In this document: piece by piece, positions 1 to 62,769 of the stretch
Position numbering within the stretch: the stretch's first letter is position 1
How the letters are laid out: the number at the start of each line of letters is the position of its first letter
Assembly (NCBI GenBank): GCA_017404545.1
Contig: JAFRCC010000006.1
Location: 8-64,007, forward strand
From: Clostridia bacterium
GTDB taxonomy: Bacteria > Bacillota > Clostridia > TANB77 > CAG-508
Direction: 5' to 3'
DNA length: 64,000 bases
The notes under the pieces: model-generated
What the model was told of the DNA's origin: nothing
The model's input: the letters and a program-made list of their open reading frames with translations, nothing else
Databases searched by the model: none
Made by a program: the position numbers and the translations under genes

Positions 1-18
1 AACAACGAATCATTCAGA

Positions 19-222
19 ATGGATCAAATAAATGTCCTAAATAAAAAGGAAACCGTAAAATTCATGGGAAATTACAGAGTTTATGACAGGAAAAATTACA
101 ACTCCATTTCAAGAGAAATCAATACTTTTCTAAAAGAATACGGTGACGTTGACATAAAATCTAAAAAAATCAGAGATAGCGGCATGAAATTTACAGCAGT
201 AAGCTTTAATTTTGAGCTATGA
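19..222 (+). CDS. hypothetical small protein
   Basis: 67-aa ORF at the window edge with no recognisable motif; context unclear. Confidence 0.3.
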   Translation: MDQINVLNKKETVKFMGNYRVYDRKNYNSISREINTFLKEYGDVDIKSKKIRDSGMKFTAVSFNFEL

Positions 223-404
223 AAAGTTTCATTATATACATATAATTCAAAATTTAACAATACCCACCATATTTAAGTATTAGAAAATAATCTCAAATAC
301 AAATAACATACAACTAAAACATAAATGATATAAATTCTTAATTTTAACAATAAATGACGGATATTACCCATATTAATAAATTAAATGATGAAATAAATAA
401 AATA

Positions 405-465
405 AAGCATTATTAATATGAAAAATAAAAGATTAAAGAAATTAATTTTTAATAACTTTTAGTAA
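405..465. repeat. about 58-bp direct repeat, copy A (second copy at 2943-3000, roughly 88% identical)
   Basis: Both copies read ATTATTAATATGAAAAAT(A/C)AAAGATTAAA...TTTTAA(A)TAACTTTTAGT when aligned by eye. Confidence 0.6.
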
Positions 466-667
466 ATTTAATCGAAATATTTATATACTAACAAAAGGGA
501 AATCAACAAAAAATTGTATAGTTACCATTTTATCTGTATTTAAGTGATTAAATAGTATAGTTTGGAAGTAACTATGTTTTTAAAATCTTATTTACAAACA
601 GTGAATAATCAAATTTTTGAATAGTTACCAAATTCCCAAAGAAAATTAAAATAAATTTTTTCACAAA

Positions 668-803
668 ACATTAATCATCAACCGTAATCATCAACCAACT
701 TGATTTTTTTATTTTTAATTAAAATTGTTTAAATCATAAAATAAGTAATTTAAAGAGTTTTTAAAAATTAATCATCAACCAAAAAATATGTTAATCATCA
801 ACC
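668..803. repeat. about 135-bp iteron block upstream of fic with 4 copies of TTAATCATCAACC (671-683, 685-696, 768-780, 791-803)
   Basis: Nearly identical block repeated at 1864-1998 immediately after the fic stop codon. Confidence 0.7.
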
Positions 804-843
804 ACATATAGTATAGTAATTAAGAAAAATAAAAGTTGATACT

Positions 844-1863
844 ATGTTTGAACCTAAATTTACATATACTGATAAAATTGTAAATTACATTGCAGAAATC
901 GCTTCAGCTAAAGAAGTTATCAACAATGCTAAAATAATCCCATTATACGATACCAAATTAAAACAGGACGCTCTTATTAGATCTTCACATTACTCAACAT
1001 CAATTGAAGGAAATCCTTTAAATTTAGACGAAGTAGAAACATTAATCAAAAACAATCAGAAACCAACTACAAAAGCAGAACTGGAAGTATTAAATTATTT
1101 CAATGTATTAAATCATTTAGACCAATATTCAGATAAAACTATTACCCAAAACACAATTTTATCCGTGCATAAAGATCTGACTAAAGATTTATTAAGAAAT
1201 CCAGAATATGAAGGTAAATTTAGGGATACTCGAGTATTTATCGGCAATCTGCATGCTCAAAAAATAAATTACGTGCCACCAGATGCTTATAAAGTGCCTT
1301 ATTTGGTAGAGGAATTATTAGACTGGTTGAACAATTCAACAGATGAAATGTATCCCGTCATTATCGCAGGAATTCTTCATTATGAATTAGTACGTATCCA
1401 CCCATTTGTTGATGGAAATGGGCGTACCAGCAGACTTATGGCAACATTAATTCTATCAGTTCACAAATTTAATATCAATAACTACTTCACTTTAGATGAA
1501 TATTATAATCAGGACAGGCAGGCTTATGTTGATGCCCTACACAGTGCTGATAAAAACCATGACTTGACTAATTGGCTGGAATATTTCTGTGGAGGAGTAT
1601 TATACTCAATTAATAAAGTTAAATCAGAAGTATTGAAATTAGGTGAAATCACATCAAAATATGATAAAACAATTCAATTAACTCCAAATGAAATTTCTGT
1701 ATTAACACTTCTTGAAGAAAAAGGACATATCCAAAACAAAGATATTCAAGAGATGTTAAAAATTACTCCCCAAGCCAGCTATAAAATTATTAGAAAACTA
1801 AAAAATAATGAATTAATTGAAAGTAGAGGAAAAGGTAGAAATACAGAATATATTTTGAAATAA
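844..1863 (+). CDS. fic: Fic/Doc family protein with C-terminal winged-helix domain
   Basis: Canonical Fic motif HPFVDGNGRTSRL. C-terminal region resembles a wHTH (LTPNEISVLTLLEEKGHIQNKDIQEMLKIT...). Confidence 0.85.
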   Translation: MFEPKFTYTDKIVNYIAEIASAKEVINNAKIIPLYDTKLKQDALIRSSHYSTSIEGNPLNLDEVETLIKNNQKPTTKAELEVLNYFNVLNHLDQYSDKTITQNTILSVHKDLTKDLLRNPEYEGKFRDTRVFIGNLHAQKINYVPPDAYKVPYLVEELLDWLNNSTDEMYPVIIAGILHYELVRIHPFVDGNGRTSRLMATLILSVHKFNINNYFTLDEYYNQDRQAYVDALHSADKNHDLTNWLEYFCGGVLYSINKVKSEVLKLGEITSKYDKTIQLTPNEISVLTLLEEKGHIQNKDIQEMLKITPQASYKIIRKLKNNELIESRGKGRNTEYILK

Positions 1864-1998
1864 AACATTAATCATCAACCTTAATCATCAACCATCATGA
1901 ATTTTTTATTTTTAATTAAAATGATTTAATTAATGAAATAAGTAATTTAATGAATTTTAAAAAATTAATCATCAACCAAAAAATATCCTAATCACCAA
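1864..1998. repeat. second copy of the iteron block (TTAATCATCAACC at 1868-1880, 1881-1893, 1965-1977, degenerate copy 1987-1998)
   Basis: Direct repeat of the 668-803 block including the AT-rich internal spacer. Confidence 0.7.
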
Positions 1999-2092
1999 CT
2001 ACAAATATCTTAAATCGAATGCTATGAAGAATATTCAAAACATTTTTATTAAGAAAAACATAATATAATTCTGAAGTGAATGGGGGAAAAAT

Positions 2093-2395
2093 ATGGATTC
2101 TTATTATAAGAGTAAAAAATTAATAATTTATTATTTTATTTCATATATTGCATGTTTTTTCCTTTTTCTAACTTTGTATATTATTTATCAGAATAATATC
2201 TTAATTTTAATCCAGTTAATTGTTTATGCGGGAATTATGAAGATATTTAGTATTAAATTTAGTGACTTAGATTGGAAATTTGAATGCATTAAAAAAGAAT
2301 ATAATGACCTATTTTTTCATGTTACACAAATAATGCCTTTTTTCATGATTTTCTTATGTTACATATCTGTAAAATTACTTAATTATCTCCCATAA
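2093..2395 (+). CDS. small hydrophobic membrane protein
   Basis: ORF with several predicted TM helices and an RBS-like GGGGGAAAAATATG upstream. Confidence 0.4.
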   Translation: MDSYYKSKKLIIYYFISYIACFFLFLTLYIIYQNNILILIQLIVYAGIMKIFSIKFSDLDWKFECIKKEYNDLFFHVTQIMPFFMIFLCYISVKLLNYLP

Positions 2396-2418
2396 TAACA
2401 TAACATTAAATAAATCGA

Positions 2419-2754
2419 ATGTCAATATTCAAAACTAAAAGGAGTGAGATTATGGGATTTTTAGAAAATCGAAGAAAAATTTTTATAACAACAATTTTAC
2501 TTCAAATCTTCACATATCTAATTACATTAGCATTAACACTGACATTAGACAATATTCTTTATTTTGGTTGTAGTTTCCTAATTTATTGCATAATTGGCAG
2601 AATTATGCTTAACCAATTAAATAACTTATATTACAATGAAAAACATGAAGATTATACTGGAGAGTATGATTTTAAATTGGATTTACTTTTTCCATTTGAC
2701 ATTATAATGATTTTAATAAATATAGCTACACTTAAAGTTTTAGGAGTAATTTAA
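2419..2754 (+). CDS. small membrane protein
   Basis: ORF preceded by AAGGAGTGAG; hydrophobic segments. Confidence 0.45.
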   Translation: MSIFKTKRSEIMGFLENRRKIFITTILLQIFTYLITLALTLTLDNILYFGCSFLIYCIIGRIMLNQLNNLYYNEKHEDYTGEYDFKLDLLFPFDIIMILINIATLKVLGVI

Positions 2755-2942
2755 CATTGACGACCACCATTAACTATTGGAAATCTACTTTTGGAAACCA
2801 TTACCTATGTTAAAAAATAATATACTTACCATCCTAAACCAAAAATTAAAAAAATATGCAAATTTGATATTCAATAATTTTAACAATCAGATTATAACTA
2901 TTGCCAATATCAAGAAAATAACAACTGAATTTCATAAAATAA

Positions 2943-3000
2943 TCAATTATTAATATGAAAAATCAAAGATTAAAAGAATTTCTTTTTAAATAACTTTTAG
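2943..3000. repeat. about 58-bp direct repeat, copy B, 180 bp upstream of the integrase gene (candidate att-type sequence)
   Basis: See copy A at 405-465. Confidence 0.6.
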
Positions 3001-3177
3001 TTATAAAAATAGAAAACTTTAAATAGTAACAAAAAGTAACTAATACATATTTTTTAAAATATCTTAAACTTTTGGTGATTCAATAATTTGAAAAATCGGA
3101 TTACTTACCAAATGCTCTCTCTCAAATTATAATATATTTCATTAATATATTATACTTATTGTCAATTAGGTGATAAT

Positions 3178-4290
3178 ATGGATAACGAGCTAGTAAGTGA
3201 AGTGAATATGGTAAAAAATCATTCCGAAGCCACTAAAATTGTTTATGAAAGAGCGGTTAAAAAATATACTGATTTTTGGTCAATGTCTTTGGAAGAACTG
3301 TTAGAAGAGGCGGAAAATGAAGAAGATAAAGGCATAAAATGGAAAAAAAGAAAATTAAAAAGGAGATTGATTCAATATCGACAACATTTACTTGAAAATT
3401 TCTCTTTAAATACAGCGCACATCTATTTCAATCCCATAACAGTTATTTACAGATATTATGAAATAGAAATAATCGATTTACCTAAAATTAACGAAAAAAG
3501 TTTAAAAAAACCAGAACCTATCCAATTCAAAGATTTACCTGATAAAGAAATCATAAGACAAGCTATAAATATTGCAACTCCTACAATGAAAGCAATAATA
3601 TATTTTATGGCGTCTAGCGGTTGTGCTAGAACTGAAACCTTGAATTTAACTATCGGAGATTATATTGGAGCCCTATCAGAATATACAAACAAAACTAACA
3701 TATACGACATAATAAATGAATTAAACGAAAATAATAATATTATTCCAACATTTAGTATTTTAAGACAAAAAACGGGAAAATATTACACTACCTATTGTAG
3801 TCCTGAAGCAGTAAAGGCTATAAATTTATATTTGCTCGATAGAACTGACTATTTAACAGATTATAAACCTTTATTCAGAATAAATTCAATTTATTTTAAT
3901 GCCAAATTTATAGAAATAAATAATAAACTAGGATTAGGAAAAGTAGGCTCTTATAATCGATTTAGAAGCCATATGTTACGTAAGTTTCACGCCTCCGCAC
4001 TATATAACGACGGTATGAGCTTAGATAAAGTCAATGACTTGCAGGGAAAAGCTAAAAACAAAACCGACCAAGCTTATTTTATGACTAATCCCGAAGATTT
4101 AAAACACGAATATATCAAACATCTTCCGGCTGTAACTATAAATCAAGATGTTGAAAAGCTATCTATCAAATCTCCGGAATTTATTCATATGGAAAATGAG
4201 AATAAAGAGTTAAAATCAGATTTAGACGAACTTAAAAGCAAAATTAAAAATATTGAAAATTTCGTTAAAAATTCCGGAGATGTCTTGTAG
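3178..4290 (+). CDS. int: tyrosine recombinase / phage integrase
   Basis: ARTETL region (first Arg). C-terminal HMLRKFHAS...LQGKA...AYF gives the H-x-x-R...H...Y catalytic pattern. Sits at the element boundary. Confidence 0.8.
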   Translation: MDNELVSEVNMVKNHSEATKIVYERAVKKYTDFWSMSLEELLEEAENEEDKGIKWKKRKLKRRLIQYRQHLLENFSLNTAHIYFNPITVIYRYYEIEIIDLPKINEKSLKKPEPIQFKDLPDKEIIRQAINIATPTMKAIIYFMASSGCARTETLNLTIGDYIGALSEYTNKTNIYDIINELNENNNIIPTFSILRQKTGKYYTTYCSPEAVKAINLYLLDRTDYLTDYKPLFRINSIYFNAKFIEINNKLGLGKVGSYNRFRSHMLRKFHASALYNDGMSLDKVNDLQGKAKNKTDQAYFMTNPEDLKHEYIKHLPAVTINQDVEKLSIKSPEFIHMENENKELKSDLDELKSKIKNIENFVKNSGDVL

Positions 4291-4438: not shown

Positions 4439-5728
4439 ATGAGTAATAAGAAATCACTAATGTTAATAATATTATCGATTTTTATGATTAGTGTTGTTAT
4501 AGGAGCGGTTTCTGCAAACTCTTCATTTGAAGAAAATTATTCTATAACTGAAACCGATAATACCGTTGCTCCATTGTCCGATATGAACTATTTGACTGAA
4601 TATAGTTCTTATTCAGACGAATCAGATTATAGTTCCGACAATGTTGAAACTACTGTTGATGATGGTACTTCAGACAGCAGTTCTGATGATGATAATGAGA
4701 ATATTGATGAAGAAACTCCTGAATATGACGGAGAATTCATTGTTGAAAATATAACTCAAAAATATGACGGATGGGGGTCTGACATATCCGTCTGGTTACA
4801 AGACAATGATGAAAATCCGCTTATTTTAGGAGATGGAGTTGTAACTCTTCATTGGAGTGATGGGACAATATCAAAACAATATGATAATGATTGGTATAAT
4901 CTCGAAATAATTGCTGATGAAATAAATTACGGCGTTGTTGATTATTCCGTATATGATTACTGGTTGTATGATGATGACGAATACGAGTGGGAAGGATATT
5001 ATTCAATTTTTAACAAGCCGGTAGGAACTTATACTGTAACGGCTGTTTGCAATGATGATGTTTACAATATTAAACCTGCAACATTTACAGTTAAAATTAA
5101 TAAAGGAACAGTTAAATTAACTCCCAAAGCTTATCATTGTGCTAAAGGAGATTATGCTACTTTAAAATGTAACGTCGTCGATTCTTACGGCCAATTTGTC
5201 GATGAAGGTACAGTAACTTTCAAAATTGATGGAAAAGAATACAAAGTAAAAGTATCCCGTGGAGTTGCTACTAAAAAAATAAAATTGTCAAAAGCTAAGA
5301 CTTATAAATATACAGCTACATTCAACGGAGACAATTATGTTTCAAAATCAGGGTCTAGTAGTATATACGTTTATAAAATCACTAAAAAAGCTAGAACTTT
5401 CAAAATTGGAAAATATAAAGCTGTAGTTCCATTAGCCAAATATAAAAAATTGATTAATGCTAAAAATACTAATAAACGTATTAGTTTTCATAACATCTAT
5501 ACTGGTAAAAAAATCACTCAAAAGGTTAAAGTAAACGGAAAATGGAAAACTATGAGAAACGTAAAAGTTTACTTTAATATTGCTTATGGTGGTAAAACTG
5601 GAGGGCAAGATTGCAATCCTAATAAATATTGCATTTATCTAGGAACTAAATATCAAAATCCCGGTTATGATGATTTTAAACCTTGGGTAGACGGGTATAA
5701 AACTAAAACATTACTTACTGATTTTTAA
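4439..5728 (+). CDS. secreted adhesin-like protein with Ig-like domain and Lys/Tyr-rich C-terminus
   Basis: N-terminal signal/TM helix, acidic D/S-rich region, Big-like segment (TVTAVCNDD...KVKVSRGVATKKIKL). Paralogous to 55374-56384. Confidence 0.6.
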   Translation: MSNKKSLMLIILSIFMISVVIGAVSANSSFEENYSITETDNTVAPLSDMNYLTEYSSYSDESDYSSDNVETTVDDGTSDSSSDDDNENIDEETPEYDGEFIVENITQKYDGWGSDISVWLQDNDENPLILGDGVVTLHWSDGTISKQYDNDWYNLEIIADEINYGVVDYSVYDYWLYDDDEYEWEGYYSIFNKPVGTYTVTAVCNDDVYNIKPATFTVKINKGTVKLTPKAYHCAKGDYATLKCNVVDSYGQFVDEGTVTFKIDGKEYKVKVSRGVATKKIKLSKAKTYKYTATFNGDNYVSKSGSSSIYVYKITKKARTFKIGKYKAVVPLAKYKKLINAKNTNKRISFHNIYTGKKITQKVKVNGKWKTMRNVKVYFNIAYGGKTGGQDCNPNKYCIYLGTKYQNPGYDDFKPWVDGYKTKTLLTDF

Positions 5729-5744
5729 TTATTAAATTAAGTAT

Positions 5745-5788
5745 AATCTGTTGAGATTATATCTTAACAGATTTTTTAATCTTTTTTT
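5745..5788 (+). terminator. hairpin (12-bp stem AATCTGTTGAGA/TCTTAACAGATT, loop TTATA) plus T-tract
   Basis: Starts 17 nt after the 4439-5728 stop and is followed by TTTTTTAATCTTTTTTT. Confidence 0.6.
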
Positions 5789-6657
5789 ATAGAGATTTTT
5801 TGAAGGTCGAAATTTACTACTTCTAAGATTTTCAATTATTATACGTTTCCCTATTTTTTTTCTATTTTTTTGAAAACATACGCCATGTGTTTTTGGACTT
5901 TTTGGTGTTCAAACTAACAAAAATTAATTTTATTATTGAATATTGTTCATTAAATCAAAAAGATAACATTTAAATATTCAAATGACAAATCTATAATTGA
6001 CCTTCACTAAAATACTTGAATTGATTTCAAAACGTTATTTTAGGGAAGGTAAAAAAAGTATCAATAGGAGTTTCAAATAAGTTAGAAATTGTTAAAAATC
6101 AGTAAAATTACAAAAAAAGACTGGATTCATAAATAAGGATTATAAAAGTAAAAAAGATATTTACTTTTTGAACAACGAGCTGATAAATATGTTTTTTATT
6201 TATAATCCTCGTAATGGGGTCAGTTAAGAAAGATAAAAAGAGTTAAACGGAGTCGCAAAACCATGTTTAATGCCTTTACTGTTCAAAACTTAACCCAATA
6301 ACTAGTTTATCTTTATAAATATATAAAGATTTGCACTAATATTAGGTTTTTTGAATAGAAAATAAGGTAAACAAATGTATTCAACTTTTTTTATTTTTCG
6401 TTATTTTTTTGTAGGTACTTGAGTTTAGATCAAGAATTACCTCATTACTTGGTTTTATTATTGATATTTTTGAGAGATATGAGAAGGGCTTTTGTTATTT
6501 AAATAACAATTAGTCCTCAATATCGGTATATTTATATGTATAGCGATATAAATTAAGAATTAGATTAATAATTTTTAGTTAAATATTAATCTGCTAGTGA
6601 ATAACGCTCCAATGAGTTATTCGGAGAATGATGAGGAGTTAAGATGGAGTCGCAACC

Positions 6658-16242: not shown

Positions 16243-16537
16243 GATTACTATTTTTTTTCAATGAATTTTACTTTAGAACTATTTTTAATTTTCCGATTAC
16301 ATAACAAATGCTCTCTCGGAAAAAGCGTATATTTTATATTTGTACTAATATACAACTAGGAGTCACATATTTCAGTTCGACTTTTTTTTATTTGTGAAAA
16401 GTTGGTTTTATTGGTGATGGTTGAGAACCTGAAAATGTGACTTCTTACTCTATTTTTAAATTTAGAACGTGCAGATTTTGTTTTATGTTAATAAAAAATC
16501 AAAATTATCCTTTTAAGAAAAATCCGAATAGGATATA

Positions 16538-48126: not shown

Positions 48127-50799
48127 ATGAGTAAAAGAACCTTAGCTGATGAAATGATAACTTTAATTCAAAGTGAATCAAATAACAATCCCGCTCCTAA
48201 ACCCTGCAAAATAGTTGGCAATTATGGAACTAATCCTTATTGCGACGTAGAAGTTGAAGATTTAGGTAAATTAATCCATAAAAAAACAATAGGCAGTACA
48301 GAAATAGGTTCAGAAGGTATTATTTGCTTTTTAAACGGAGATTTAAATCAAGGAATTGTAATAACTCACGATGAAACAGCTCCAATAATTGAATGGTTTA
48401 ATCAAAATAATATAATCGATTTATTGTACTATCTCGAAAATTACGGTAAAAAGTCAGATAAATCCTATTATTTGTTTAGAGGTGATTGTTGGACTATTAA
48501 CAATAATTTCGAATCTAGCGCCTCAATTACTAGTAAAACCGACAAGGATTTTACCGTTACTGGAACATTCCGAACTAGAAATGATATTGTAGGTATTTAT
48601 TGGAACTCGGAAGATGTTATTCAACACCCGTATATCAGTTATGGTTCTATAACTGATTATTCTGACGTAATCTTAGAGTTTGATTATGAAATGAGCGGTT
48701 GTAAAGATTTTTCTAATGGAGTTATAAGTATTACTGTCGGAATGAATGACGGTTCAACATATTATATGACTATGAACCGTTTTATTGAAGATAATCATGT
48801 TACTCTTGATTTTAATAATCTTACTTTACTAGCTGGAAATGTTTATATTGATTCTGAAGGTGAGGAAATAGAGATTACAGAAACAACTCCCTTAGACGTA
48901 ACTGATGTAAAATATATTATGTTTGTTATAGTTCCTTCTAACTATGTAGAAAACAAAGAACAATATACAATTATTAGAAATACGGACTTTACTTGTAAGA
49001 TAAGCAATATTGAAGTTACTAATGGTGAAATTTGTAAAGAGTATATACCGTTAGACCCTCAAGAATATCGATTGTGTGAAGGTTATGACGATTTTTATGA
49101 TTTGAACCCTTATAGAGTTTGTAGGGAAATGAGGAAACTAGGATATGTAAATTGGATTGATTTATATATCGGCGCCTCTCATTTTTACGAAAAAAGCGGG
49201 ACTGTTGGAGATTTAATAACTATATCTGAAACTTTGAATCATACTCAAACAGAAAAAATGGTTTTAAATCAAAAAGTACCCTTGAATAGAGCTTTTACTA
49301 CTTGGTTGGATTGTTATTCTCGTGAATTAAAAGCTAACGGTAGTGATAAGCTTGTTGTTAGTGTATCTATGGAGAATTTGCAGTGCCCTACTAGTTGGAG
49401 ACAAAAAGCCTGTAATGGAAATTACGCTTTAACCGGTTGGGTTCCCTCTACTTTCTTTTATAGTCCTTGTAATCCGGAAGTATTGTCTTATATGCAGTCC
49501 GTTAGTGAAGCTTGTCTTGATATAGTTGTAGCTAATGATTTACAACCTATTCTTCAGATGGGTGAGGCTTGGTGGTGGTGGAATGAAAACGATAAACCTA
49601 ATCAACCGCCTTGTTTTTATGACGATTCTACTAGAAACAGTTATTATAAAGAGTTCGGTGAGAATATTCCGGAATATTCGTCATCTTGGGAAAATTACGA
49701 TAATAAACTCACTTCTTGGCTCAATAAACAATTAGTTAAATATAGTGATGGGTTAAGAGAGGTTGTAAAAGATTCTAAGTATAAAAACGGCTTGTATATG
49801 GCTTTATTTTTCCCTCCTTCCGTTACTGATGTTGATAGGGTTCCGGCTATGATGAGAGAGGTTAATTTTTTGAAAGATGCTTATACTCCTTTGAAATTAG
49901 ATGTTTTACAGCTAGAAGATTATGATTGGGTTACTGGCGAGAGCGTACATCATGATGAAGTCTACTCGTTAGGTCAAGAATTAGGATTTAGTGAGGATAG
50001 ATTACATTATTTTGGAGGTTTTGTTCAGTATCCTGAAGATGCGCCTAAGTTTTGGAATTTAATCTCTAAATCAATGGAAACTGCAATAAATAAGAAATTT
50101 AAAGAAGTCTTTGTTTGGGCGGGTTCTCAAGTAAGACGGGACGGAAAATTCATAGGTCATTACGCTTATGAGCTAATACAAAGATTGTTAGATAAAATTC
50201 CGGACGTTAAAGCTTATGATGATTCTGATTTGGTTTCTAGAATAACTAGTGCTGAAGGACAAATTACTACGATGGGAGGGCGAGTTTCTACTTTAAATGG
50301 AGAATTAACTACTCTAGACGGCAAAGTAACTACTTTAGAAGGTCAAGTATCAACTTTAGATGGAGAACTGACTACTTTGGAGGGTCAAGTTTCTACTTTA
50401 GATGGTGAAGTAACAACCTTAGAAGGTCAAATAACACCAATAGTTGATAGTGGGTGGGTTAATTTGAGTTTAACCGGTAATTTTTACAATTTTGATTCTA
50501 CTAATAGTGTAAAATACCGTAAATATGGAAGTGAGGTTCAAATTACTGGACTTCCAGTGTTAAATGCCTATCCTTCTGCGCTAACTGAATTAATCATTGG
50601 AACGTTGCCTAGTGGTTTTAGACCAATCCGTGACGTATCTTTTGTTTGTGAGTTAAAAGACGATGATAAGCTGTGGACTTGTACCGTAAAGTCTAACGGA
50701 GAGGTTACTTTCAACCGTTTGAGAGATAATACTGGTTTTGTTGCCGGAACTGCTTTTGCAGACGTTTTAAAATTAAATGTTAATTTCTTAATTGACTAA
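48127..50799 (+). CDS. large tail fiber protein with trimeric coiled-coil stalk and C-terminal receptor-binding-like head
   Basis: 890 aa containing seven TLxGxxT heptads and a central Trp-rich region (GEAWWWWNEND). Confidence 0.55.
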   Translation: MSKRTLADEMITLIQSESNNNPAPKPCKIVGNYGTNPYCDVEVEDLGKLIHKKTIGSTEIGSEGIICFLNGDLNQGIVITHDETAPIIEWFNQNNIIDLLYYLENYGKKSDKSYYLFRGDCWTINNNFESSASITSKTDKDFTVTGTFRTRNDIVGIYWNSEDVIQHPYISYGSITDYSDVILEFDYEMSGCKDFSNGVISITVGMNDGSTYYMTMNRFIEDNHVTLDFNNLTLLAGNVYIDSEGEEIEITETTPLDVTDVKYIMFVIVPSNYVENKEQYTIIRNTDFTCKISNIEVTNGEICKEYIPLDPQEYRLCEGYDDFYDLNPYRVCREMRKLGYVNWIDLYIGASHFYEKSGTVGDLITISETLNHTQTEKMVLNQKVPLNRAFTTWLDCYSRELKANGSDKLVVSVSMENLQCPTSWRQKACNGNYALTGWVPSTFFYSPCNPEVLSYMQSVSEACLDIVVANDLQPILQMGEAWWWWNENDKPNQPPCFYDDSTRNSYYKEFGENIPEYSSSWENYDNKLTSWLNKQLVKYSDGLREVVKDSKYKNGLYMALFFPPSVTDVDRVPAMMREVNFLKDAYTPLKLDVLQLEDYDWVTGESVHHDEVYSLGQELGFSEDRLHYFGGFVQYPEDAPKFWNLISKSMETAINKKFKEVFVWAGSQVRRDGKFIGHYAYELIQRLLDKIPDVKAYDDSDLVSRITSAEGQITTMGGRVSTLNGELTTLDGKVTTLEGQVSTLDGELTTLEGQVSTLDGEVTTLEGQITPIVDSGWVNLSLTGNFYNFDSTNSVKYRKYGSEVQITGLPVLNAYPSALTELIIGTLPSGFRPIRDVSFVCELKDDDKLWTCTVKSNGEVTFNRLRDNTGFVAGTAFADVLKLNVNFLID
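50284..50430 (+). repeat. 7 x 21-bp tandem repeat inside the tail fiber gene, encoding the heptad stalk
   Basis: gtttctactttaaatggagaa / ttaactactctagacggcaaa / gtaactactttagaaggtcaa ... read directly. Confidence 0.8.
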
Positions 50800-56908: not shown

Positions 56909-57229
56909 TTTTATGATCACTATTTTGATTTTTCGTGTAGCTCGTTGATGGTTCTTGGTGTTATAAAAAATGGTTTAATGAACTTTTATTTTATTTGCAT
57001 TTTACCTTTTTGTGTCTGTTTATTTTCCTCCGAGATTTTTATTATATTGTTTATTATTTATTTAAAATTGTTGAATAATTATTTAATATTTCTACATTGA
57101 ACGATATTGAATAAATTTAAAAACAATTAAATACAAAGTATTAACAATAGAGAAAGTATAAGTATAGGATATTTTGAAATATATCTAATACATACTTATA
57201 GAAAATTCATCTATAGGAGTGTGAAAAAT

Positions 57230-57823
57230 ATGGTAGATTCTGAAACCATTGAAGCAAAAATTTCTGATAAAAAAGAAGAATTTGAAGAAAAAGTAGATGA
57301 AAAAGTCGAAGAAGGAAAAGAAAAATTCGAAGAGAAAAAAGAAAAATACGAAGAAAGAAAAGAAAAAGGAAAAAATATTGCTGATAATGTAATTAACGAT
57401 TTATACAGAACCATTGATGAGGTCAAAGACAACCTCAAAAACATGCAAAAATCTGCTGATGAAAGATATGCCAACTACAAAAAATCAACTGTCCAAACAT
57501 TAGACGTTGATCTTGTTGAAACCAAAGATATCTACTACATCAAAGCAGCAGTACCTGGTGCTGAAAAAGAAGATGTGTTGATTGAAGCTGGTGACAACGA
57601 CATTACTATTGAAACCACTTTCAAACCATACATTGAAGAATTCGCAGAAGATGAAGAAGCTGAATTAATCGCTTCTAGCATCAAAGCCGGAAGATGTGTT
57701 AAAACAATCAGATTCGAAAACAGCCTTGATTTAGAAAACATCACTGCAAAATTCGCAAACGGAATCGTTACTATAACCATTCCAAAACTAATCATACCAA
57801 AACATAAAATCAATGTGGAATAG
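57230..57823 (+). CDS. hsp20: small heat-shock protein Hsp20/alpha-crystallin family (ATG 57230 preferred over GTG 57221)
   Basis: K/E-rich N-terminus then alpha-crystallin domain (DVDLVETKDIYYIKAAVPGAEKEDVLIEA...GIVTITIPK). RBS AGGAGTG. Confidence 0.8.
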   Translation: MVDSETIEAKISDKKEEFEEKVDEKVEEGKEKFEEKKEKYEERKEKGKNIADNVINDLYRTIDEVKDNLKNMQKSADERYANYKKSTVQTLDVDLVETKDIYYIKAAVPGAEKEDVLIEAGDNDITIETTFKPYIEEFAEDEEAELIASSIKAGRCVKTIRFENSLDLENITAKFANGIVTITIPKLIIPKHKINVE

Positions 57824-57850
57824 TCTCCACATTTTATCCCTTTTTTTAAA
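57813..57850 (+). terminator. hairpin ATGTGGA-ATAGTC-TCCACAT plus T-tract at the hsp20 stop
   Basis: Read directly. Confidence 0.45.
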
Positions 57851-58102
57851 AATTAATATCTTACTTAATGATTTAAGAAGTTTTAATTTCTTTTTCAATC
57901 ATTACAATTTAATCATCCATGAAAAATTAATTAGACCATTTTCTTTGTAAATCATTATCATTATACTTGATTTTTTCCTGGCATTCACTATATTTTGATA
58001 CTCCTTCCTCAAACCATTTTAAACACATGTCTTTATTTTTGTTATAATGTTCGCAGTCCAAATGGATGTTTTCTTCAGCCATATTAAAACACTTCCTTAT
58101 TT

Positions 58103-59113
58103 TTAATATCTTACTTTACCAATGTGTCTTGTTGCACCAGGATCTTCACCATTGAAGTGAGCCAAGTAATATACAAACCATTCAAGTGGAATTACAAAGA
58201 TGAATGGAGACAATAACTTATCAACATCAGCATAATCCTTTAAGTCATAGATTATTGATTTGGCTTCAAGGTTTTTACAGAAATCAATAGCTTTTTGTGT
58301 GATTTCATCAGATTTTAAATCAGATGTTAAAAAGATTACCGGAACATCCTTTTCTGCCCTTTCAATCAGACCATGTCTGAATTCTGCTGAATATTCAGGA
58401 CAAGCATGTTTGATTGCTCCTTCCATAAGCATGGTCATGGCCAATTTGTATGAAAGACCAAAGTTAGGTCCACTTCCCAAACAGTAGAAAATGTCTTCAT
58501 CTTTAAACTCTTCGGCCAACACTTTATTTTCATCTTCAGTTGCAACCAAAAGTTTTTCAAGCATTTTAGGCATTTCAGCTAATTGTGCCAGCAGCTCTGA
58601 TTTTTCCTCATAATCTGATGCCTTAAATAAGATTTGATATAAACAGGCAAGCTGGGTAATGTATGTTTTAGTACCTAAAATTGCAGTTTCTCTTTCACAT
58701 CTTGTAACAATTGGAGTTTTTGCTTCTTTAATCATGGAACTGTCAGGCTCGTTTGAAATGGATACTGTGTGTATTCCAAATTCATTGCATCTTCTTAAAG
58801 ATGCAAGAGTATCAGCAGTTTCACCTGACTGAGAAGTAAAAATAGCTATGGAGTTTTCATCATTTACCAATTTCTTGTTGTAGTAAAATTCATAACCAGT
58901 ATAGACTTCTATGTTCATGTTAGTACTGGACATCCTAATTGCATCCCTAACACTGTAACAAGTTGAAATAGAACTACCGCAACCAATTAAATAGATTTTA
59001 TCCACTTGTGAAATTAAATCAGACACGTCATCCATCTTTGGCATTTCACTTTCAAATGTTTTTTTAAGTGAATCAGGTTGTTCCATCATTTCGTCATACA
59101 TTTTATATTTCAT
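58103..59113 (-). CDS. SIS-domain sugar-phosphate isomerase/aminotransferase-like protein (two SIS domains)
   Basis: [10 protein letters not shown]...[11 protein letters not shown] and [19 protein letters not shown] are SIS-fold phosphosugar-binding motifs. Confidence 0.6.
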
Positions 59114-59204
59114 AGCTAAAACTCCTTTAAATTTAATAAATAATATTAATATATTGTTAATAGATATATAAAAATGTTTTTTAGAAAATAATTAAAATGA
59201 TATT

Positions 59205-59831
59205 ATGGAAATAGATTTAGCTTTAATTGGAATGGAAAAAGGAAAACAATATGAAACAATTATTACTACAAAAAATAGTGACAATATTCAAAATGCAGCA
59301 CCTATTGGAGTAATATGCTCCGGAAAGGATAAAGTTTTATGCCGAATTTTCAAAGGAGGAAAAACTTTAGAAAATATATGTAATCAAAAAGAGTTTACTG
59401 TAAATATCACTCATGACCCAGAATTATTTATGTTATCGACTTTAGGAAATCTTCCAGAAGAGTATTTTAACCAAGATAACTCAATTAAAGACATTGATGC
59501 TTATTTTAAATGCAAAGTTGTTTCTTTTAAAGAAGCTGTTAAACAAAGTGACCCCATTAAAAAGAAAGGTGAAGCGATTGTTATCAAATCAGAAGTTACA
59601 GAATTGATTATAAATAACGATATCAAAGCGTTCAACCGTGGTTTTGGATATGTTATCGAATCATTATCAAATTATTCCCGTTTTGATTTGGTGGATGAAG
59701 ATAAAAAACAGGAATACATTAAAACATTTAGAGAAGCCAACAGAATTGTTAGAAAAATAGGGTATAAAAAAGACATTGCATCAATGAATGCAATAAAAAA
59801 TAAAATAAAAGAAAAAGGATATGATGTTTAA
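59205..59831 (+). CDS. DUF447-family protein (split-barrel, flavin-reductase-like)
   Basis: Sequence family recognised from memory; 208 aa. Confidence 0.4.
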
Positions 59832-61549
59832 TTTTTAATAACATCAATAAATTCAAATGAATCTCCATCAAACAAACCTTGATCTGAAATTTTTAATGAT
59901 GGAATAACTAAAAGCGCCATAAATGCCATTGTCATAAATGGTGCATCAAGTGTACATCCTAAAGCAGCAGCCATCTTATGTAAGGTATCTAACTTTTCTG
60001 CAACAACAAAAGCGTCTTCATTGCTCATAAGCCCTGCGATTGGAAGTGAAAGTGAATCTCTAAAGTCTTCACTTACAACGGCAAATCCACCTTTATTGTC
60101 AATGACTTCATTTACAGCTTCAGCCATCATTTCAGAGTCATATCCAACTACAACAATATTGTGTGAGTCATGAGCTACAGAAGAAGCGATGGCGCCTTTT
60201 TTAAGATTGAAACCAGTTATGAATGCATTGGTTATTGCTTCACCACCATATCTTTCAACAACAGCTATTTTCAATACATCCTGATAAATGTCTGACTGAA
60301 CTTTGCCCTCTTTAACTTTCAGCTTTGCAGTTGTCTTTTTGGTTAGAAGTTCACCATTATAACATTTGATTACATTGACTTCACATTCATTGCCATCGAA
60401 ATAAACATCAAAGTCTTCAGGTGATTTTTGAGAAACGTTCATTGAATTTGTGGTTTCAACATCCTCAACATCAAACAATACTTCTTCACCGTCAAATACA
60501 CATTGCCCGTCAATGTATGTTTTTAAGACATTCAAATCGCGTAAACTGTCAATTACTACAAAATCAGCTTTGCCCCCAGTTACGATAGCTCCGCCTTCAA
60601 GGCCAAAATGATTTGCAGGATTAATAGTTACCATTTCAATTGCCTGAATAACATCAATTCCAAGTTCTGCTGCCTTTTTGATTGATTTGTTTAAATGTCC
60701 ATCAATTAAGTCGTTAGGATGCTTGTCATCACTTACAATAAAGTCAAATATTGGGGAGTGCAATCTTCTCTCGATTATCTCAGTTGGTATGATACTGAAA
60801 CCATCCTGTTTTTTCAGGTGGTTTAACTTCTCTGAAAAATCAAAGAGAGCTTCCATATTTTTAGCAGATGATCCATCACGAACCATAATTTTCATACCTT
60901 TCTGCTTTTTCTCCATAGCTTCATTGAAATTACTGCATTCGTGATCAGTTACTATACGTTGAGCGATATATTTATCCAAATCTCTACCAGTTACAAGTGG
61001 CGCATGACCATCAATAGGTTTTCCAGACTGTCTTGCAAGCTCAAGTTTTCTTAAGACTTCCTCATCCCCTCCGATAACACCAGGGAAGTTCATCATCTCA
61101 GCAAGACCGACAACCTCATCCTTTTGAAGCAAATAGCTAATATCTTCAGCATCCAAAACAGCGCCTGATGTTTCAAATGCAGTTGCCGGAACACAGGAAG
61201 GTGCTGTAAAATAAAAGTTGAATGGAACTTTTGAAGCATTGTCAATCATGAATTCAATACCGTCGATTCCTGAAACGTTTGCAATTTCATGAGGATCACA
61301 TACAACTGCAGTGGTACCGTGTCTTACAGCAATTTTTGCAAATTGCTGCGGTGTAATCATACTGCTTTCAATATGAATGTGAGAATCAATAAAACCTGGA
61401 ACCAATAATCCATCCACATCAATTTTTGTCTCTTCAGTAACAACAATCGGAAGTATTTCCTTAAAAATACCTTCTTCAATTGTTATTCTTGCCGGATAAA
61501 TAGATTCTGTTAAAACATCTAAAATATAAGCTGTAAATTTCATTTTCAT
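59828..61549 (-). CDS. ade: adenine deaminase
   Basis: [14 protein letters not shown] metal-binding motif as in bacterial AdeC; about 570 aa; amidohydrolase fold. Confidence 0.8.
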
Positions 61550-62769
61550 TCCTCATGCAAAGCGTTATAAAGAAGTGGCAGAAATGTACCAATGTCTGTA
61601 ACAATACCCACTACCTGAGCACTACCCCTATCAGACAGTTTAGTAACTGTAGATGGATTGATATCCACACAGATACTTTTAACTCTAGATGGGAGCAGAT
61701 TACCTGTAGCGATTGAATGAAGCATTGTTGCAATCATAATTACCATATCAACTTCTTGAGCATAATGACGCATTAACTTTTGTGACTCTGCAGTATCAGT
61801 TATAACATCAGGAAGAGGCCCATCATCACGAATAGACCCTGCAAGAACATAAGGAACATTGTTTTTAATACACTCATACATGATTCCACCAGTCAAAGTT
61901 CCATCTTCAACTGCATTTTTAATAGAACCTGAATTGTTAATCCTATTAATGGCCCTCATGTGGTGAGTGTGTCCATGTGCTACGATTTTACCGGTTTCAA
62001 CTTCAATACCTAATGAAGTACCAAACAAATTAGATTCAATGTCGTGAGTAGCTAAAGCATTTCCCGCCATAATGACATCAATGTATCCTTCCCTAACCAA
62101 AGCAGCTAAGAATTTACCTGAACCAGTGTGTACAATAGCTGGTCCTCCAACAATACCTATTTTTCCACCTTTAGCCTTGATTTCCTTCATTTCACGAGCA
62201 ATACCATTAATTAAGTTCATTAATGGTTTTTCAGAAGACACTTCACTGTTCATGAACTCGAATACCTGCTGTTCATCTCTTGATCTGTGAGGAGGTGTAA
62301 CTTTAACACCATCAAGACCAACGACGATCTTATCTCCAGCTTTAATTTCTGCAATTGGCTTTACAAAAGCTCTTTTTTCATCTTCATCAACTACAACCAA
62401 ACAGTCCATTTCAATTTCTTCAACAGGAATCCAATTCCCATCATAGAAAATATGAGTAGTATGATTAGATGAGGAATAAAAACCTTCAGGAGCAACTTTA
62501 TCTTTAGTTGATGCAACAAGATTAACTTCTTTAATATCATCGATTGATGCACCAAGAACAGACAATTCATCTAAAATAGACTCTAATAATTCGGGAGAAT
62601 CTGCTGAAACTTCAATTTTTGCATGACTTACATCTGATTTTTTACGCCCAACATCGATTTCCAATATGTCAAATTCTCCGCCTTTGTCCATAATTATGCC
62701 CATTGTTTTAGTTAAAGTCAATGAGTCAATAATATGGCCAGAAAGCTCTATAGTTCTTTTATTATCCAT
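61546..62769 (-). CDS. conserved archaeal protein (TIGR00300 / LOR-SDH-like Rossmann protein; function uncertain)
   Basis: 407 aa with glycine-rich [15 protein letters not shown]. Family recalled from memory only. Confidence 0.35.

Follow-up and report, generated by a model that had tools for sequence, protein, structure and literature searches.

A winged-helix fic gene of gut methanogens is carried as a discrete cassette between duplicated iteron blocks, which may serve as its operator

The gene for a Fic-family protein in a 64-kb stretch of DNA from contig JAFRCC010000006.1 (the whole stretch is hereafter called the window) is enclosed by two direct repeats of ~135 nt, each carrying four iterons, and the resulting block-fic-block arrangement is a discrete cassette which has been gained, lost, and stacked across Methanobrevibacter and Methanosphaera. 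We consider it reasonably probable that the repeats represent an operator through which Fic would control its own gene, that this operator became duplicated behind the gene, and that the two copies now recombine; the weakest steps of this combined explanation are the binding of Fic to the boxes and the mechanism of recombination. The protein itself belongs to an already known kind; what is new here is a putative operator with four directly repeated boxes, which is duplicated so as to flank the gene and thereby gives rise to a recombining cassette in gut methanogens.

Architecture of the fic locus

A repeat search paired window positions 640-810 with 1837-2007 at 85% identity, and the stretches from 666 to ~806 and from 1863 to ~2003 are almost identical in the alignment. 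The two blocks on the forward strand, block A (668-806) and block B (1864-2003), bracket the fic gene (844-1863, forward strand, 339 amino acids) as tightly as an earlier note on this DNA had described, with 40 nt separating the end of block A from the ATG (844) and block B starting 4 nt past the stop codon (1861-1863). Both blocks share a layout of two abutting copies of the 13-mer TTAATCATCAACC, an AT-rich spacer of 71 nt, and two further copies 23 nt apart, with 84 nt from the start of iteron 2 to that of iteron 3 in either case. The iterons of block A are located at 671-683, 684-696 (with a G at position 1), 768-780, and 791-803, those of block B at 1868-1880, 1881-1893, 1965-1977, and 1988-2000. 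Seven of these eight sites, all on the same strand, are intact, and the last one of block B is degenerate, reading CTAATCACCAACT with three mismatches; the earlier description of two direct repeats with four iterons each is confirmed for the repeats as such and needs to be qualified for this final site. There are seven exact copies of the 12-mer TAATCATCAACC in the 64 kb (start positions 672, 685, 769, 792, 1869, 1882, and 1966), all of them on the forward strand and within the two blocks. The 12-mer was never found in 100 dinucleotide-preserving shuffles of the window, zero copies of the iteron being predicted by chance, and allowing up to two mismatches yields three chance-level matches in the remainder of the 64 kb, whose left end has a G+C content of ~25%. 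The arrangement recurs in dozens of independent assemblies, which rules out an assembly artefact. No tRNA target was found, and window positions 1-3200, which include both of them, contain no known RNA family of the Rfam collection.

Properties of the encoded Fic protein

As judged from Pfam searches, the fic product contains a Fic domain (PF02661, E 3.4e-22) and, at the C-terminus, a winged helix, which is recognized by the MarR (E 8.7e-07) and HTH_24 (E 7e-06) profiles at residues 278-329, spans approximately residues 278-339, and resembles that of AdcR/ZitR. The Fic motif HPFVDGNGRTSR (residues 186-197) and the N-terminal inhibitory (alpha-inh) motif STSIEG (residues 51-56) are both intact, which assigns the protein to class II of the Fic proteins; the inhibitory motif is invariant across an alignment of 64 sequences. 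The AlphaFold model (predicted local distance difference test score 89.7) shows three helices and a beta wing at residues 281-338, and a Foldseek search with this model returned full-length matches to 4RGL, CbFic2 (8CIL), SoFic (3EQX/3ZCN), and 7XUX, which we take to be the structure of CccR. The PADLOC model for SoFic was matched with an E value of 5.1e-57 over residues 39-337, which together with the defense-island contexts described below fits the addiction or defense module proposed in the earlier note. The score of 62.5 obtained with the NCBIfam SoFic equivalog lies far from the cut-off of 550, indicating a relative within the family rather than a SoFic orthologue. The protein is thus a class II Fic AMPylase of the SoFic/CccR/CbFic2 type with a C-terminal winged helix.

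The dual role of such winged helix-turn-helix (wHTH) Fic toxins as enzymes and DNA-binding proteins has been recognized only recently. CbFic2 is converted from an AMPylase to a deAMPylase by DNA binding (PMC10628234). SoFic is toxic and works through abortive infection (PMC12249575); it AMPylates EF-Tu and, as a dimer, binds in a specific manner to the 100 bp in front of its own start codon (bioRxiv 10.64898/2026.07.09.737422).

Distribution and boundaries of the cassette

A scan for the iteron dimer in one genome per species revealed 27 loci, 23 of which belong to Methanobrevibacter, Methanosphaera, or Methanobacteriaceae by record title, while the other four carry bacterial bin names and are probably mis-binned, as judged from their G+C contents of 26-30%. 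The window is itself read as Methanobrevibacter DNA, and its positions 1-1756 are 100% identical to locus L011 (contig CAZOYH010000012.1). A metagenome scan added 48 further loci. The identity of the Fic proteins amounts to 87-94% among the closest Methanobrevibacter homologues and 81-84% in Methanosphaera (with one case of 68%), indicating that the cassette has moved between the genera. A census of 89 blocks with a recognizable proximal box pair showed that 55 directly adjoin fic (31 upstream of it, 23 downstream, and one between two fic genes), that nine are solo blocks free of fic over more than 1.15 kb to either side, and that the remaining 25 have no fic in view within short flanks. Exact-dimer blocks never number more than three in any assembly, which characterizes them as a low-copy element and not as the common intergenic repeat which the earlier note had named as the case that would speak against its proposal. 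A literature search yielded nothing relevant on the iteron sequence or on Fic cassettes in methanogens.

Direct iterons around an AT-rich stretch have the classical look of an iteron-type origin or of plasmid R1 parC, and origin sites were among the options of the earlier note. That the block serves a small integrated replicon as its replication origin or as a partition site nevertheless seems highly improbable, given that fic is the only gene of the unit, with no Rep, Orc/Cdc6, or Par gene accompanying it, that no block copy was found in IMG/VR viral contigs, PLSDB plasmids, or GenBank phages, that there are few blocks per genome, and that two copies surround a 1-kb gene while solo copies are situated between ordinary chromosomal genes.

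Comparison across species shows nucleotide homology that extends from iteron 1 of block A to the last iteron of block B, with unrelated flanks on either side. Positions 4876-6206 of locus L003 correspond to window 668-2003, and the same boundaries are found in L016, L021, and L025. One identical Fic protein (P0038) is encoded on 144 contigs, where it resides inside a defense island with neighbors including TIR, AAA_14/DUF4143, HTH_3-ImmA, DpnII, SLFN, AbiJ, DrmE_C, and radical SAM proteins. Its flanks fall into two upstream and at least three downstream types, with all four upstream-downstream combinations being observed, and the breakpoints are displaced outward from the blocks by 24-43 nt. 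At one locus the site is filled in L017 and empty in L009 and L027, and at another it is filled in L085 and occupied by a solo block in L075, L104, and L114, whose flanks are 99.1-99.6% identical; the latter case represents a polymorphism at the strain level. Locus L082 (4676-6222) contains a tandem block-fic-block-fic arrangement with two alleles that are 96% identical over their first 183 nt, the middle block serving as downstream block of the first fic and upstream block of the second, diverged allele. The blocks also surround other cargo, namely a zeta-toxin gene in L005 (b1-zeta-b2-fic-b3) and an AAA_14/DUF4143 ATPase gene in L020 and L074. Both the different cargo and the empty sites in relatives, for which the earlier note had recommended a search, were thus encountered, and its view of a cassette-like unit is borne out by these states together with the homology limits. 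For the locus of the window itself, a look-up with the neighboring gene orf100 found no variant lacking fic.

Two small hydrophobic open reading frames (ORFs) follow block B in the window (2093-2395, 100 amino acids, and 2419-2754, 111 amino acids). They lie outside the conserved cassette and gave no family match in Pfam and PADLOC profile searches; in some strains of the same species a 100-residue ORF replaces the second one.

The blocks as putative operator

The iterons are strongly conserved. Pairwise comparison of ten cassettes gave a mean identity of 0.93 in the iterons, against 0.75 in the spacer and 0.66 at the fourfold degenerate sites of fic, which indicates strong purifying selection on the iterons and a mild one on the spacer. 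The distance between block and ATG is 37-41 nt in most full cassettes, the two deviating loci being explained by ORF calling. Per-column conservation was computed over 37 unique blocks, 35 of which contain a run of at least five T residues in the first part of the spacer. Block A of the window shows such an oligo-T tract (T7AT5) at 704-716 and block B (T6AT5) at 1902-1913, both on the forward strand. Oligo-T tracts terminate archaeal RNA polymerase, and the tract of block B, ~40 nt behind the fic stop codon, is likely to represent a terminator of this kind, while that of block A would halt read-through entering from upstream. Further elements on the forward strand are a degenerate central box (AAATCAT, 731-737) in block A and a leader (807-843) that connects this block to the start codon, travels with the cassette, and includes a TATA-like AT-rich stretch overlapping the end of the block (805-816) and a Shine-Dalgarno-like GTTGAT (835-840). 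The promoter is probably situated in this leader and block region. Taken together, these elements suggest that the block combines an auto-operator of fic with an oligo-T terminator and probably a promoter.

The most likely ligand of the iterons appears to be the winged helix of Fic itself, as suggested by the precedents in the family, by the core sequence shared with the operator of CccR, and by a clade-specific pairing of box and recognition helix; among the options of the earlier note, an operator bound by Fic remains the best-supported one. CccR of Yersinia pseudotuberculosis, likewise a class II Fic protein with a C-terminal DNA-binding domain, is toxic via AMPylation and acts as a repressor of its own promoter by means of repeated 10-bp boxes, with a footprint of AGATAATCAT-N26-ATGATAATCT (PMC9755527). 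The core of these boxes, TAATCAT, is also the core of the iterons. This match is suggestive at most, since the winged helices of CccR and the window Fic show no detectable sequence similarity.

More specific information comes from a sister clade of Fic proteins (P0271-P0274, 51-53% identity), the genes of which are preceded by a similarly organized block with three boxes in a 23-nt period and, 86 nt further on, two boxes 23 nt apart. Its iteron is TTAATCATAAAGT, different from the TTAATCATCAACC of the window, and the recognition helices also differ, reading ITPQASYKIIRKLK in the window clade versus VSSQSGYNYLNSLK in the sister clade. Box type and Fic clade partition perfectly: the seven sister loci contain no CAAC-type box, whereas the 111 other loci contain 510 of them and none of the AAAG type. 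The sister-clade genes are located in a fixed housekeeping context (eRF1/DUF655) and lack a downstream block, which argues that the upstream block belongs to the gene and that the downstream copy was derived in the mobile clade. Still more distant Fic homologues (~39-50% identity) have no such blocks, and their genes are found in operons or behind short intergenic regions. A distant homologue, a wHTH-Fic gene surrounded by toxin-antitoxin pairs on a Methanomicrobia contig (L062), is directly followed after its stop codon by three tandem 12-mers GTTGACGCAAGA (2831-2866).

We propose that Fic is an auto-inhibited AMP-transferase toxin of the kind acting in anti-virus defense, fused to a winged-helix DNA-binding domain, and that the block would be its control module, with an oligo-T terminator in its 5' part and four boxes surrounding an AT-rich promoter region. 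Fic dimers would most likely bind these boxes and thereby repress their own potentially toxic expression.

Several observations weigh against this proposal. The lack of detectable similarity between the two winged helices leaves room for the common 7-mer being a coincidence, for which we roughly estimate a chance of ~1 in 100. The boxes are direct and spaced by 13 and 23 bp, whereas those of CccR are inverted and 36 bp apart; palindromes are the usual targets of MarR-type domains, and a symmetric dimer on direct boxes would need flexible winged-helix arms. The covariation of box and clade is based on just two clades. Iterons are also retained in solo blocks and B blocks without an adjoining fic, and the genes behind such blocks are convergent in about half of the cases, which leaves the downstream copy without an obvious regulatory target; because of this convergence in about half of the loci, it was also rejected as a rule that block B provides the promoter for the gene that follows. 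Finally, the complete isolate genome of Methanobrevibacter intestini (CP187956.1, locus L118) carries an intact fic with block B only (4880-6170) and represents a natural operator-deletion variant.

The persistence of iterons at a distance from fic would be accounted for if they were bound by a host or other trans-acting regulator different from Fic, the block being a portable module of terminator, promoter, and operator that has fic and some further genes under its control by chance. Solo-block iterons are indeed 0.83-0.98 identical to the consensus in the absence of an adjoining fic, some blocks are followed by same-strand genes (coding for Bro-N, an AAA_14 ATPase, an adhesin-like protein, and orf100 in the window), and some genomes among the 27 hits yielded solo blocks only. 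We nevertheless regard such a regulator as unlikely. The perfect partition of iteron types with Fic clades, the direct adjacency of 55 of the 89 blocks to fic, the convergent orientation of roughly every second gene that follows a solo or B block, and the binding of wHTH-Fic relatives to their own promoters all point to Fic instead, and the exact-dimer search misses fic cassettes with degenerate dimers such as that of P0038, so the solo-only genomes are not established as such.

To our knowledge, only one operator of a wHTH-Fic protein has been mapped so far. The locus described here adds a natural and easily testable putative operator with strong conservation, consisting of four 13-bp boxes and a clade-specific variant, as well as a first view on the wHTH-Fic family in archaea. 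It also suggests that a toxic defense gene can carry its own insulation in the form of a terminator and an operator at both ends.

In the M. intestini genome, only the final 20 nt of the leader remain, and the upstream flank is fused to them at a repeat of 13 nt, AATTAAGAAAAAT; an IS630-like insertion sequence (IS) with terminal inverted repeats at 3514-3547 and 4858-4891 lies directly upstream. The same 13-nt repeat is present around block A in some loci; it was rejected as a general target-site duplication and looks like the microhomology of the M. intestini deletion. The block was likewise rejected as a part of the IS630-like element that adjoins some blocks, since this element ends before the block and its own terminal inverted repeats stop ~110 nt ahead of the start of fic.

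Recombination between blocks

Within one locus, the spacers of blocks A and B are 0.78-0.95 identical, compared to 0.75 for A-A or B-B pairs across loci, and this likeness within single cassettes indicates gene conversion or repeated recombination. The solo blocks are chimeras with an A-type left and a B-type right part, and their switch points vary by locus, being located in iteron 1 in the L015/L075 group, in the T tract in L027, and near the fourth iteron at the right end in L009. Such variable crossover points favor homologous recombination over a dedicated recombinase.

In the course of events which we propose, the control module would have been duplicated behind fic in Methanobrevibacter/Methanosphaera, yielding an insulated block-fic-block cassette. 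The direct repeats of 133 bp would then be substrates of homologous recombination, intramolecular exchange deleting fic and leaving a solo block, and a cassette, circular or in linear form with its terminal repeats, could recombine into any resident block. Recombination of this kind would insert cassettes, stack them in tandem arrays, and exchange them between strains, between species, and between the two genera. The operator and cassette readings of the earlier note are not mutually exclusive, and both appear to be largely right. The 135-bp repeat pair would permit loss, regain, and stacking of the gene in methanogens of the gut, and also its transfer between Methanobrevibacter and Methanosphaera, which may be relevant for the building of archaeal defense islands and for strain variation of human and ruminant methanogens.

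Two points sit uneasily with this model. The arrival of the first block at a new site is left without an explanation, and the best-sampled locus class switches within an 11-nt window at the extreme left, outside of the longest identical tract. The latter could hint at a preferred site, although the switch in iteron 1 of the L015/L075 group probably goes back to a single ancestral event.

A rival reading would take the blocks as attachment sites of a site-specific recombinase encoded elsewhere, with the iterons as arm-type sites, the AT-rich center as the crossover region, and fic as passive cargo, comparable to an integron or IMEX-like system. The tight packing of fic, the other cargo arrays of L005 and L020, the tandem array, and the solo blocks and filled/empty pairs are all compatible with such sites, as are the seven solo blocks of one locus class that switch within iteron 1 and a putative tyrosine recombinase, identified by eye from the sequence, ~300 nt upstream of the cassette of L021. 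We still consider attachment sites a rather doubtful explanation, because the switch points differ among loci and no recombinase is consistently found near the blocks: the integrase of the window is borne by a provirus absent from L039 and L048, and a tblastn search with it gave no match in the 27 loci. In addition, the sister clade has its block solely upstream of fic in a housekeeping context, which ties the iterons to the gene and not to mobility, and folding as single-stranded DNA revealed no significant structure in either strand of either block (z-scores from -0.98 to +0.09).

A transposable element of the IS type or a miniature inverted-repeat transposable element was ruled out, since the terminal repeats are direct, the sole ORF is fic, and no consistent target-site duplication was apparent in the aligned flanks. 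A more far-reaching idea is that of a minimal self-mobilizing element, in which Fic dimers bound to the boxes of both blocks would bridge these, loop out the gene, and promote its excision and its re-insertion at other blocks via host recombination; we deem this quite improbable, but a single DNA-binding toxin would then supply regulation, addiction, and mobility. In a weaker version, the blocks, including the solo ones, would be docking places for Fic as an inactive DNA-bound dimer until infection sets it free.

Relation to known systems

Compared to CccR, the cassette shows several differences. Instead of two inverted boxes there are four direct ones around an AT-rich spacer, the putative operator is present a second time, in full, behind the gene, and the gene is archaeal and chromosomal, whereas CccR is an effector of a bacterial type VI secretion system. 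SoFic (Shewanella oneidensis SO_4266), a single-gene anti-phage system, shares the domain architecture and motifs of the window Fic, at ~18% identity in a structural alignment, which does not indicate an orthologue. In contrast to SoFic, the cassette here is not accompanied by a conserved small AS1-like partner. We know of no description of a repeat-flanked cassette for SoFic.

Integron cassettes resemble the present ones in containing a single tightly packed gene with repeated sites of ~60-140 bp in one orientation, in forming arrays, in showing presence/absence polymorphism, and in carrying defense or toxin cargo. Unlike attC sites, however, the blocks do not show an inverted-repeat or hairpin structure, an attC-like hairpin having been rejected by folding, and all of their boxes are direct. 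There is also no adjacent IntI or attI, the nearby tyrosine recombinase (3178-4290) being provirus-borne, and the crossover position varies, while the repeat carries the regulatory boxes of the gene itself. A further parallel is the formation of solo long terminal repeats (LTRs), where recombination between direct terminal repeats leaves a single repeat at the locus and repeats belonging to one copy resemble each other more closely than those of different copies. Other than in LTR elements, reverse transcription and an integrase are lacking, the repeats measure 135 bp, and insertion appears to need a pre-existing block.

With regard to layout only, operator clusters on both sides of a regulator gene are known from lambda OL/OR around cI, and iterons on both sides of a core promoter from parC of plasmid R1. 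These layouts permit cooperative binding or looping and tight autoregulation, but they are not recombination cassettes.

Adjacent provirus and further repeats

The earlier note had connected fic with a nearby provirus integrase, a link that does not hold. The loci L039 and L048 of the same species match the window contiguously at 1-3052 and 57182-62540, position 3052 being joined directly to 57182, and thus lack a provirus of ~54 kb (window ~3040-57194). The provirus is bordered by the att core CTAATACATA (3040-3049 and 57185-57194), starts with the tyrosine recombinase gene (3178-4290), and begins ~1 kb downstream of block B, leaving the cassette outside. Since an identical fic cassette is present whether or not the provirus is there, the adjacency of fic and integrase is incidental, and the cassette was rejected as a provirus module.

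Various other repeats were noted. Upstream of block A (~517-536, 553-575, and 619-636) there are fragments similar to IS630-type terminal inverted repeats. A non-coding repeat R is present at window 251-501 and 2748-3039 with 73-82% identity, as well as in L004 (4164-4478); its second copy in the window ends at the att core of the provirus, and R-like repeats occur on both sides of blocks in other genomes. An imperfect direct repeat of 43 nt, its copies being 77% identical, is found closely upstream of the integrase gene (3084-3126) and again where the gene orientation switches (16280-16322). Within the provirus, seven genes are preceded by the 15-mer GAGCTGATAAATATG with the start codon at its end (forward strand; 6177, 7413, 9045, 12573, 31775, 50802, and 54278), which did not occur in 100 shuffles and may represent a common viral module for ribosome binding and translation start. 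Tandem repeats with a period of 21 nt, equivalent to seven residues, are found at 50254-50435 within the ORF 48127-50799, and the 890-residue provirus protein encoded there is possibly a fiber or adhesin.

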